Shown here: piece by piece, positions 41,891 to 44,371 of the stretch
Position numbering within the stretch: the first letter of the stretch is position 1
How the letters are laid out: every line of letters starts with the position of its first letter
From: a virus
Lineage: Duplodnaviria > Heunggongvirae > Uroviricota > Caudoviricetes
IMG/VR virus record: IMGVR_UViG_2880395615_000010
Reading direction: 5' to 3' (one strand)
Length of the DNA: 64,000 nucleotides
The notes under the pieces: model-generated
What the model was told of the DNA's origin: nothing
Databases searched by the model: none
The model's input: the letters and a program-made list of their open reading frames with translations, nothing else
Made by a program: the position numbers and the translations under genes

Positions 41891-44371
41891 ATGAGTAAAG
41901 TCTTTATTTGCGCTGCCATTCCGGACGAACAGGCAATAAAACAAGAAGGCGCTAAACCTGTAGCCACAGCCATTGAAGCCGGTGATGAACGTCGCGCCCG
42001 CGCAAAATTTCACTGGCAATTCCTGGAACATTATCCGGCTGCTCAGGACTGCGCTTATAAATTTCTTGTTTGCGAGGATAAACCCGGTATACCCCGCCCT
42101 GCCCTCGATTCCTGGGATGCTGAATTTATGCAGGAAAACCGCTGGGATGAGGAGTCTGCTTCCTTTGTCCCGGTTGAGACTGAATCAGATCCTATGAACG
42201 TCACTTTTGACAAGCTGGCCCCTGAAGTACAGAACGCTGTCATGGTTAAGTTCGACACATGTGAAAACATCACCGTTGATATGGTGATTAGCGCGCAGGA
42301 ACTGTTGCAGGAAGACATGGCAACATTCGACGGACATATCGTTGAAGCGTTGATGAAAATGCCAGAAGTTAACGCCATGTATCCGGAGCTTAAGCTGCAT
42401 GCCATCGGGTGGGTTAAGCATAAATGTAAGCCTGGTGCCAAATGGCCCGAAATTCAGGCAGAGATGCGCATCTGGAAAAAACGTCGCGAAGGTGAACGCA
42501 AGGAAACCGGAAAATACACGTCTGTTGTTGATCTCGCCCGCGCCAGAGCCAATCAACAGCACACTGAAAATTCAACAGGAAAAATCAGCCCGGTCATTGC
42601 TGCCATTCATCGCGAATACAAGCAGACATGGAAAACACTGGATGACGAACTGGCCTACGCTCTCTGGCCTGGTGATGTGGATGCCGGAAACATTGACGGC
42701 AGCATCCATCGCTGGGCAAAAAATGAAGTTATCGACAACGACCGCGAAGACTGGAAGCGTATCTCGGCATCAATGCGCAAACAGCCTGATGCCCTTCGCT
42801 ACGACCGCCAGACTATTTTTGGCCTTGTCCGTGAACGTCCGATCGACATTCACAAAGACCCTGTGGCACTGAACAAATACATTACTGAATACCTGACTAC
42901 AAAGGGCGTGTTTGAAGATGAAGGAAGAAATCAGAGCGCAACTGATACTCTCTCGTCGCCAGTACCAGAAACTGATGCAGTGGAAACGGCAATTCAGGAC
43001 AACGAAAAAACCGAATGCAAAGTGGAAGTCGAACCATCTGTAGAGCGTGAGGGGCCGTTCTACTTCCTCTTCACCGACAAGGGTGGCAAAAAATACGGTC
43101 GCGCAAACAAACTTTCTGGTCTGGATAAGGCACTGGCTGCCGGGGCTACTGAAATCACGAAAGAAGAATATTTCGCCCGCAAAAACGGTACATACTCAGG
43201 TTCACAACAAAATACTGGTGCATCTGACACGACCGCACAACCAGGGCCGGTAAAAGTTACCGCTGACGAAGTAAACAAAATTATGCAGGCAGCCAATATC
43301 AGCCAGCCTGACGCCGATGAACTGCTTGCAGTATCACGTGGTGAATTTGTTGCAGGGATTAGCGACCCGAATGATCCGAAATGGGTGAAGGGGATTGAAA
43401 CCCGCGATTCTGTGAACCAGAACCAGCAAGAAACGGAACAGAACGACCAGAAAGCGGAACAAAACAGCCCAAATGCGTTACAAAACGAGCCAGAAACGAA
43501 ACAGCCTGAACCAGTAGCGCAACAAGAACAGGAAAAGATCTGCACCACCTGCGGTCAGAGCGGTGGCGGCAACTGCCCTGATTGTGGCGCGGTGATGGGC
43601 GACGCAACATACCAGGAAACATTCAATGAAAAAAATCAGGTCGAATCTCAGGAAAAAGATCCGGAAGAAATGGAAGACTCTGAACATCATCACAAGGAGG
43701 ACGCTGGCAATGATCACTATCACGATAGCGATGGTGAAACTGGCGAGACGACAAATACCTTAATTAAGGCGAACGATCATCACAAAGCCACATCCGCCAG
43801 CAGAATGTGGTACCACCTGATGCTCGACCTCGAGACGATGGGAACTAACACCAACGCGCCCATAGTGGTTATTGGTGCTGTGTTTTTCGATCCGCAGACA
43901 GGGGAAATCGGGCCAACGTTTTATATCGTTATCAGCCTAGCTGACGCAATGACCACAGGTGCTGTTCCGGATGGTTCCACCATTGAATGGTGGCTGGCGC
44001 AGTCCAGTGAGGCGAGATCTGCAATCTTGGTAGACCAGGTAAAACTGAAGGATGCCCTTTTACGGTTCCGGGAATTCATCAGCGAACATTCAGATGAGAA
44101 ATTCGTGCAGGTATGGGGCAATGGCGCAACTTTCGACAACACAATTTTACGCCGTTCATATGAACGGCAGGGGATCACCTGCCCGTGGCATTACTGCAAC
44201 GATCGCGACGTGCGCACAATCGTCGAACTGGGAAAAACCATCGACTTTGATGCCAAGACAGCTATTCCATTCGAAGGCGTACGCCATAATGCACTGGATG
44301 ACGCTCTCCACCAGGCAAAATACGTTACAGCCACCATACAAAAAATGATCCCGGATCAGGCTGATTTTTAA
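41891..44371 (+). CDS. Large phage exonuclease with C-terminal DnaQ-like (DEDDh) 3'-5' exonuclease domain, about 826 aa
   Basis: C-terminal LMLDLETMG, WGNGATFDNTIL and HNALDDALHQAKY motifs; central CTTCGQSGGGNCPDCG zinc-ribbon-like motif; ORF-track start at 41855. Confidence 0.7.
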   Translation: MSKVFICAAIPDEQAIKQEGAKPVATAIEAGDERRARAKFHWQFLEHYPAAQDCAYKFLVCEDKPGIPRPALDSWDAEFMQENRWDEESASFVPVETESDPMNVTFDKLAPEVQNAVMVKFDTCENITVDMVISAQELLQEDMATFDGHIVEALMKMPEVNAMYPELKLHAIGWVKHKCKPGAKWPEIQAEMRIWKKRREGERKETGKYTSVVDLARARANQQHTENSTGKISPVIAAIHREYKQTWKTLDDELAYALWPGDVDAGNIDGSIHRWAKNEVIDNDREDWKRISASMRKQPDALRYDRQTIFGLVRERPIDIHKDPVALNKYITEYLTTKGVFEDEGRNQSATDTLSSPVPETDAVETAIQDNEKTECKVEVEPSVEREGPFYFLFTDKGGKKYGRANKLSGLDKALAAGATEITKEEYFARKNGTYSGSQQNTGASDTTAQPGPVKVTADEVNKIMQAANISQPDADELLAVSRGEFVAGISDPNDPKWVKGIETRDSVNQNQQETEQNDQKAEQNSPNALQNEPETKQPEPVAQQEQEKICTTCGQSGGGNCPDCGAVMGDATYQETFNEKNQVESQEKDPEEMEDSEHHHKEDAGNDHYHDSDGETGETTNTLIKANDHHKATSASRMWYHLMLDLETMGTNTNAPIVVIGAVFFDPQTGEIGPTFYIVISLADAMTTGAVPDGSTIEWWLAQSSEARSAILVDQVKLKDALLRFREFISEHSDEKFVQVWGNGATFDNTILRRSYERQGITCPWHYCNDRDVRTIVELGKTIDFDAKTAIPFEGVRHNALDDALHQAKYVTATIQKMIPDQADF

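Follow-up and report, generated by a model that had tools for sequence, protein, structure and literature searches.

RecE and RecT are the workhorse of recombineering, and in the Rac prophage of Escherichia coli K-12 the RecE gene (exodeoxyribonuclease VIII) is the last large early-left gene before xis/int. In the known two-component phage recombinases a 5'-3' nuclease leaves the 3' tails on which the annealing protein (annealase) is loaded, and the N-terminal domain of RecE was still called function-unknown in a 2023 review (PMC11611040). A different type of enzyme is represented by T4 DexA, a characterised 3'-5' DNA exonuclease, and by EcD ('HREX'), a stand-alone E. coli DexA homologue that protects against T4 by digesting DNA with 5-hydroxymethylcytosine (5hmC) (PMC12153337). 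Here we analyzed a gene that combines relatives of both types. It lies at positions 41,891 to 44,371 of a 64,000-nucleotide (nt) stretch of tailed-phage DNA (IMG/VR record IMGVR_UViG_2880395615_000010; the window, in what follows), and its product of 826 amino acids (aa) consists of a YdfE/RecE-type N-terminal scaffold and a C-terminal head with the sequence of a DEDDh-type 3'-5' exonuclease. The gene is the intact form of ydfE, a pseudogene of the K-12 Qin prophage, and represents a case of module swapping, not a broken recombination system.

The longest reading frame at the locus, which is also its sole long open reading frame (ORF), spans positions 41855-44371 (+) and would give 838 aa from a TTG start. 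Translation from the ATG at 41891, which is preceded at ~8 nt by a GAGG Shine-Dalgarno sequence, yields the 826-aa product, in line with the length of the homologues (mostly 826 or 823 aa). PHROG 2082 matched this product over its full length (1759 bits), and ~8000 database proteins matched its N-terminal part, so that the frame is no chance ORF. The head gave a PF16473 score of 228.6 bits against a cut-off of 27, with profile positions 2-175 of 177 covered, and carries the three motifs DLET (D646, E648), NGATFD (D749) and HNALDD (H799, D804). When the head was aligned with T4 DexA and three further heads, these five residues did not vary, and the active-site residues of the head match D7, D119, H186 and D191, which are given for T4 DexA in PMC12153337. 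The closest solved relatives found by sequence were the 227-aa 'Exodeoxyribonuclease' chains of PDB entries 8KEL and 8KEN (E=1.5e-8), whose differences S87A/D90A are those of the T4 DexA mutant of the same report. With a score over the gathering threshold and a complete catalytic set, the head is assigned to the DexA/Rv2179c family of DEDDh 3'-5' exonucleases, and it is predicted to be active. The likeness to T4 DexA and to PF16473 extends to the DEDDh fold family, to 28-29% identity and to the five aligned catalytic residues. T4 DexA and most of its phage homologues are, however, stand-alone proteins of 175-230 aa, whereas the head of the window protein is tethered to a 625-aa scaffold and has neither the insertion loop of DexA nor the residues proposed to read 5hmC in that enzyme.

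The part that precedes the head, aa 1-625, is identified by its sequence as the N-terminal scaffold of YdfE and RecE. BLASTP aligned aa 262-625 with residues 278-591 of K-12 RecE at 37% identity overall and at ~75% over the last 160 aa, a stretch that spans the 'SRGEFVxGISDPNDPKWVKGI' motif, a CxxC…CxxC ribbon and an acidic linker. The NCBIfam RecE equivalog model NF007259 matched aa 445-625 (model positions 438-602) with 269 bits, far below its cut-off of 1269. Residues 1-256 are 96% identical to the product of ydfE, and homologues 88-94% identical to the window protein bear the Pfam labels YdfE_N (PF27430) and YdfE_C (PF27432), through which the family was assigned. The gene order dicA-like, ydfA, ydfB, ydfC, DicF, dicB, ydfD, ydfE is also the same as in Qin (ydfE of K-12 is b1577); the K-12 copy is cut by IS2E after ~256 codons, so that its own head is not seen, whereas the window copy is complete. 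RecE and the window protein have in common the operon slot, a long N-terminal region, the GISDPNDPKW motif, the four-cysteine zinc ribbon and, as far as …ETGE, the acidic linker. They differ at both ends. The first ~260 aa of the window protein form a YdfE_N module, whereas K-12 RecE starts with an Exonuc_VIII module (PF06630, first 178 aa); and where RecE ends in a PD-(D/E)XK 5'-3' nuclease (DUF3799), the window protein has its DEDDh 3'-5' domain. PF12684 (DUF3799) gave no match in the window protein at E<=1, and K-12 RecE itself matched at aa 615-850.

A model of aa 1-640, built with a 69-sequence alignment, gave one confident domain (aa 1-205 and 245-345, with a predicted local distance difference test score, pLDDT, >90) and the confident β-hairpin/helix mini-domain of aa 386-435 (strands 390-394, 401-405 and 419-422; helices 408-416 and 424-431), which coincides with a gap in the alignment to K-12 RecE. 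Two helices at aa 458-482 had a pLDDT of roughly 65-85 and belong to the helical motif of aa 456-505 (family consensus 'GISDPxDP', pLDDT 63-84 over the motif). The remainder was mostly of low confidence and predicted to be disordered, including most of the surroundings of the zinc ribbon, with pLDDT <50 at aa 224-236, 348-382, 439-456, 502-548, 567-583 and 596-640. The four-cysteine motif is kept in K-12 RecE as CNACGQTGGDNCPDCG; its Pfam backing is a weak double-zinc-ribbon match (E=0.061), and it too has low AlphaFold confidence. The linker that follows contains 15 acidic residues (D/E) within aa 581-620 and a His run. The original prediction, made from the letters of the sequence, had described a protein of about 826 aa with a central four-cysteine motif, an acidic linker and a C-terminal DEDDh domain with three visible motifs, and each of these elements was found here, the cysteines being C551, C554, C562 and C565. 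The search of the N-terminal part that had been proposed with it identified the RecE/YdfE scaffold.

We then compared the window gene with relatives that end differently. Among the closest database proteins the majority carry a DEDDh head, but seven 900-aa proteins (P0089 and six others) and one of 1057 aa, all 90-94% identical to the window protein over aa 1-628, terminate in the PD-(D/E)XK nuclease domain known from RecE (DUF3799). In DNA sequence, the P0089 locus (L005) is 91% identical to the window over 40974-43746 and unrelated past 43746, and the homology to K-12 recE stops at the same nucleotide. In the proteins the junction (…ETGE|, aa 619-626) lies in the disordered linker, and ETGE is common to the junction sequences compared. 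The order of genes at L005 is dicB, DUF1482, the P0089 gene, recT overlapping the stop codon, lar, DUF1187, xis and int. The alignments indicate that the head is exchanged by recombination at a fixed point of the disordered linker, at nt 43746. Furthermore, among 106 close homologues the pairwise identity is 0.81 in the head (minimum 0.33) versus 0.91 in the scaffold (minimum 0.83); measured against the window protein, the values are 0.78 for the head (aa 631-826), 0.77 for linker aa 501-630 and 0.94-0.98 for the scaffold, with identities as low as 33-36% for some heads. These differences point to head alleles that have been exchanged repeatedly, or to diversifying selection.

In order to see how far the scaffold extends beyond these relatives, an exhaustive HMMER search with aa 1-630 was run against 1.84 billion representative proteins. 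It returned only 242 clusters, so that the scaffold family is small. Of the 53 representatives that are 450 aa or longer, 7 carried the DEDDh head, 13 the RecE PD-(D/E)XK head, 18 a head of ~280 aa (type C) and 8 one of ~190 aa (type D), while the last 7 had no recognisable head. From the predicted structures we conclude that the type C head is a putative Rad52-like annealing domain. The relationship was visible only in the fold comparison and in sub-threshold Pfam matches, and sequence-only PDB searches with this head found nothing, whether run with one sequence or with a profile; the other high-scoring fold matches were helical repeat proteins, assumed to align with a long helical hairpin at the C-terminus of the model. 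The PHROGs label of these fusions is 'exonuclease', which is probably due to their RecE-like N-terminus, and one of them is located 3' of kilR and a weak Gam match and 5' of Sipho_Gp157, xis and int. With the type D head no Pfam match was obtained in the two members scanned (P0125 and P0233), and that of P0125 matched only phrog_26058, of unknown function; other examples are P0258, P0261 and P0253 and the loci L111 and L112 (6001-8109), and the type D gene is likewise the last before xis/int.

The two N-terminal modules were told apart by their Pfam labels, since a jackhmmer classification blurred YdfE_N versus Exonuc_VIII. Each of them pairs with all four head types: YdfE_N with the DEDDh head in the window protein, with the PD-(D/E)XK head in P0089, with the Rad52-like head in P0128 (aa 496-778) and with type D in P0125; and Exonuc_VIII with the same four heads in P0131, P0142 and P0252, in K-12 RecE, in P0245 and in P0135, respectively. 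Hence, the scaffold is a chassis that sits at the recombination position of early-left operons in enterobacterial lambdoid phages, with the DEDDh domain as one of its interchangeable ends. A separate case is P0205 (703 aa), in which an Exonuc_VIII module is joined directly to a RecT domain (aa 528-678, Pfam); this may be a recE-recT fusion that arose by deletion, or an artefact of assembly or gene calling.

The original prediction had considered the protein as a λ-type exonuclease that lacks its usual partner. The absence of a partner stood. The six-frame ORFs of the window with 40 aa or more, 804 in number, were searched (phmmer/hmmsearch) with two RecT alleles, λ Redβ and λ Exo, the head of RecE and a Rad52-like head profile, and none matched at E<=10; the model of aa 1-640 contained no fold of a single-strand annealing protein (SSAP). 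The small upstream ORFs were rejected as annealases, as had been foreseen for these two genes of about 62 aa each, because by Pfam they are DicB and a DUF1482 protein; no annealing domain was therefore located in the N-terminal region or in the neighbouring small ORFs. The λ part of the comparison did not stand, given that aa 1-625 are a RecE/YdfE scaffold and that the operon is of the dicB type of Qin. With λ Red and RecET ('SynExo') the locus has in common the position in a lambdoid early-left operon, and sibling alleles of the gene are bona fide RecE and RecT pairs; those systems, however, have a 5'-3' nuclease and an annealing protein, the window locus has neither, and the polarity of its nuclease is predicted to be opposite. 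The DEDDh domain was the only nuclease domain found in the protein, and no SSAP of the families scanned was linked or fused to it.

The genes that follow the head were inspected at further loci. At all nine loci with a DEDDh head (the window and eight others) recT was absent after the gene. Those that run straight into xis/int include the window, strain DEC5B, phages Evi and Tritos, and L107, L108, L109 and L110, the last four with DEDDh proteins that have the other N-terminal module, Exonuc_VIII; in the complete annotated genome of phage Tritos no annealing protein is listed. At both RecE-head loci inspected (K-12 Rac and L005) recT overlaps the stop codon of the gene. RecT therefore co-varies with the type of head, in that it is found after PD-(D/E)XK heads and not after DEDDh heads. 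The xis/int modules 3' of the DEDDh heads vary from locus to locus, which argues against a head that merely travels along with a single integration module. Since RecT goes with the RecE-type nuclease end, and a 3'-5' nuclease of the DEDDh type is unlike the 5'-3' partners of annealing proteins, the partnerless state is expected for this allele and is no anomaly.

Taken together, these results make it highly probable that the gene is a stand-alone, head-swapped relative of RecE, i.e., an intact ydfE that encodes a DEDDh nuclease working without an annealing partner, and not a crippled Exo/annealase pair. DEDDh enzymes take nucleotides off free 3' ends and are often active on DNA and RNA alike. 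The scaffold may supply a function independent of the head, such as targeting the enzyme to DNA ends or a host factor, or its assembly there, while the tethered DEDDh head would trim nucleotides from free 3' ends. The substrate would most likely be DNA, on which T4 DexA also acts, and the activity would fall in early lytic development; DNA is the likelier substrate because all other identifiable heads on the chassis act on DNA. The candidates for its purpose are the trimming of ends in phage replication or recombination, the scavenging of nucleotides, and interference with the DNA of the host or of a competing phage. Several points weigh on the other side. The role in targeting or assembly that is proposed for the scaffold is purely inferential, and the fold comparison gave no informative match; the co-variation of RecT was observed at nine DEDDh and two RecE-head loci inspected by eye, and not in a census; for annealases of the Erf, Sak4 and gp2.5 types the negative result comes from the PGAP annotation of the near-identical DEC5B prophage and not from profiles of these families; PF16473 is named after the exoribonuclease Rv2179c, so that an RNA substrate is possible; and literature searches found no experimental or comparative study of this protein or of any YdfE-type DEDDh allele.

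A more general role of the scaffold is a tentative extension of this reading. The YdfE/RecE scaffold might be a general adaptor of enterobacterial lambdoid phages, which brings interchangeable DNA-end effectors (the 5'-3' PD-(D/E)XK nuclease and its RecT, the 3'-5' DEDDh enzyme, the Rad52-like annealase as a fusion, and the type D head) onto one common target, for instance the ends of DNA, the replication fork or some factor of the host, although we regard this as less probable than its opposite. If it were true, the DEDDh allele would represent an annealase-independent end-processing pathway of opposite polarity (or an anti-recombination or anti-defence pathway), and the RecE N-terminus could be tested through a head-independent function.

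Among the alternatives, it is improbable that the protein is a defence or superinfection-exclusion nuclease of the prophage that acts on modified phage DNA in the way of EcD, or that it counters defence by degrading a nucleic-acid immune signal. A bacterial DexA homologue with anti-T4 activity does exist (PMC12153337), and the head is more variable than the scaffold among the 106 homologues, which would fit an arms race as well as allele shuffling. Residue D721 of the head (equivalent to D90 of DexA) is kept, however, whereas the loss of the D90 equivalent, a tetramer contact, defines the EcD-type 'dimer-only' enzyme, and the positions aligned with the proposed 5hmC-recognition residues W152 and D169 are C769 and F785, in a region where the alignment is uncertain. 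PADLOC 2.0 (2023) gave no match, that release being older than the HREX report. The early-left operon is repressor-controlled and, by analogy with dicB in Qin, expression of the gene in a lysogen would not be expected. In addition, EcD is not a scaffold fusion but a stand-alone protein that begins, as read from the primer sequence, at its Exo I motif. Identity of the window protein with EcD was rejected on the same ground, as EcD starts with MIDTET; a scan of genome contigs with the 17-nt core of the EcD primer gave chance matches in unrelated bacteria only.

It is very unlikely that the gene encodes the nuclease of a true Exo/SSAP recombination system whose partner is unlinked, either a phage SSAP encoded elsewhere or host RecA/RecFOR. 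The gene does hold the exact slot of RecE in the operon, the same scaffold otherwise bears recombination effectors (the RecE head with RecT, and the Rad52-like SSAP), and the prophage retains RusA as a recombination accessory gene. Against this, the 64-kb window contained no homologue of RecT, Redβ or the Rad52-like head, no SSAP is annotated in the near-identical DEC5B prophage or in the complete Tritos genome, and no SSAP is linked to the gene at any of the nine DEDDh loci. Furthermore, annealases load on the 3' tails that 5'-3' nucleases leave (PMC11611040), and a DEDDh enzyme would remove such tails.

Similarly poor are the chances of a 3'-5' exoribonuclease that acts on host or phage transcripts or on small RNAs such as DicF of the same operon: the best Pfam model (Rv2179c-like) bears such a name, NCBI calls many copies '3'-5' exoribonuclease' and there is a weak oligoribonuclease similarity (NF003765, E=0.092), but the sole solved homologue by sequence is the DNA exonuclease T4 DexA (8KEL/8KEN; PMC12153337), all other identifiable heads on the scaffold have DNA-recombination activities, and a family name weighs little when DEDDh enzymes so often take both substrates.

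The stand-alone, head-swapped gene is common. Of 5426 complete E. coli genomes, at least 804 contained 80% or more of a 5-kb locus around it, and a related head was present in at least 825 genomes; the gene occurred in 29 phage records and a related head in 1284. Its architecture is already catalogued in Pfam and in NCBI annotation, so that the value of the locus is in the framing and not in a new system. It presents the RecE N-terminal region as a conserved chassis (~91% identity) with a catalytic end that is exchanged at a fixed junction among at least four heads, including a nuclease of opposite polarity and a fused Rad52-like annealase. This is a natural experiment on the function of the chassis apart from its head, and offers a handle on the unexplained N-terminus of RecE. 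It also accounts for hundreds of E. coli prophages in which a gene labelled 'exonuclease VIII' lacks RecT, and it exposes annotation errors, in that DEDDh alleles are named 'exonuclease VIII, ds DNA exonuclease' and Rad52-like fusions 'exonuclease'.

The features of the gene and of its surroundings are collected in Table 1. Judged by base composition and gene order, a lambdoid prophage spans roughly the first 45.7 kb of the window, and positions 30000-45772 share 100% identity with a prophage carried by E. coli O55:H7 strain DEC5B, in which PGAP names the gene just 'exonuclease' and the ORF upstream DicB. The exonuclease gene is the last gene of the early-left operon, which is of the Qin dicB type (DicF, DicB, YdfD-like) and not of the λ exo-bet-gam type, since a full-length DicF precedes dicB at the place that it has in K-12 Qin. 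The DUF1482 gene occupies the slot of K-12 ydfD (annotated 'lysis protein'), and directly 3' of the exonuclease gene, with no recT in between, is the DUF4224 gene.

Table 1. Positions of the exonuclease gene, its parts and its neighbours in the window (aa numbers of the parts refer to the 826-aa product)
Feature	Positions	Strand	Residues or size	Evidence
DicF small RNA, upstream member of the early-left dicB-type operon	41196..41247	+		Rfam RF00039, 76.7 bits vs gathering score 48, E=4.8e-16
dicB, cell-division inhibitor	41422..41610	+	62 aa	Pfam PF05358, E=1.7e-37, 1-62/62
ydfD-like DUF1482 gene	41607..41798	+	63 aa	Pfam PF07358, E=5.1e-25
Whole gene, intact ydfE-type protein (RecE/YdfE scaffold and DEDDh head)	41891..44371	+	826 aa	ORF, Pfam, NCBIfam, BLASTP, PHROG
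Folded N-terminal scaffold domain (YdfE_N); aa 262-345 common to K-12 RecE	41891..42925	+	aa 1-345	
β-hairpin/helix mini-domain between disordered acidic linkers	43046..43195	+	aa 386-435	pLDDT 88-96
Conserved helical motif with 'SRGEFVAGISDPNDPKWVKGI', common to RecE, part of YdfE_C	43256..43405	+	aa 456-505	~75% identity to RecE 446-485
CxxC-x7-CxxC zinc-ribbon-like motif, common to RecE	43541..43585	+	aa 551-565	C551, C554, C562, C565 (CTTC...CPDC)
Acidic His-rich disordered linker containing the head-swap junction	43592..43810	+	aa 568-640	Composition; pLDDT <50
Predicted DEDDh 3'-5' exonuclease head, Rv2179c-like / T4 DexA family	43814..44332	+	aa 642-814	PF16473, E=5.3e-68
DUF4224 gene, excisionase position	44424..44633	+	69 aa	Pfam PF13986, E=4.2e-15; DEC5B annotation agrees
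Tyrosine integrase, prophage end	44633..45658	+	341 aa	Pfam Phage_integrase, Phage_int_M, SAM-like domains

Some further observations concern the surroundings of the operon. Between the stop of the DUF1482 gene and the start of the exonuclease gene (41799-41890) the coordinates of the window and of the DEC5B record are offset by one base (4772 nt in the query and 4773 nt in the record), which implies a 1-nt indel in this intergenic region. The identical prophage of DEC5B adjoins a tRNA-Ser gene, and the homology of the window ends at 45772, inside that tRNA; ARAGORN found no tRNA within window positions 44000-49000. Just beyond the integrase there is a low-GC island (0.39) with two genes on the + strand, one for an AvrPphF-ORF-2/HopF-family protein (46274-46927, Pfam), which we take to be EspJ-like, and one for a protein with five 47-aa EspF repeats (47255-48127, Pfam), presumably of the TccP/EspFU type. 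Both products would be candidate type III effectors, and the attachment-site tRNA appears to be interrupted by this effector island and by the next prophage. Finally, the order of large minus-strand ORFs at 2300-16400 (439, 199, ~1160, ~226, 232, ~860, 137, 143, 250 and 131 aa) recurs at 48239-64000, which suggests that the window contains two tandem lambdoid prophages with homologous tail modules.

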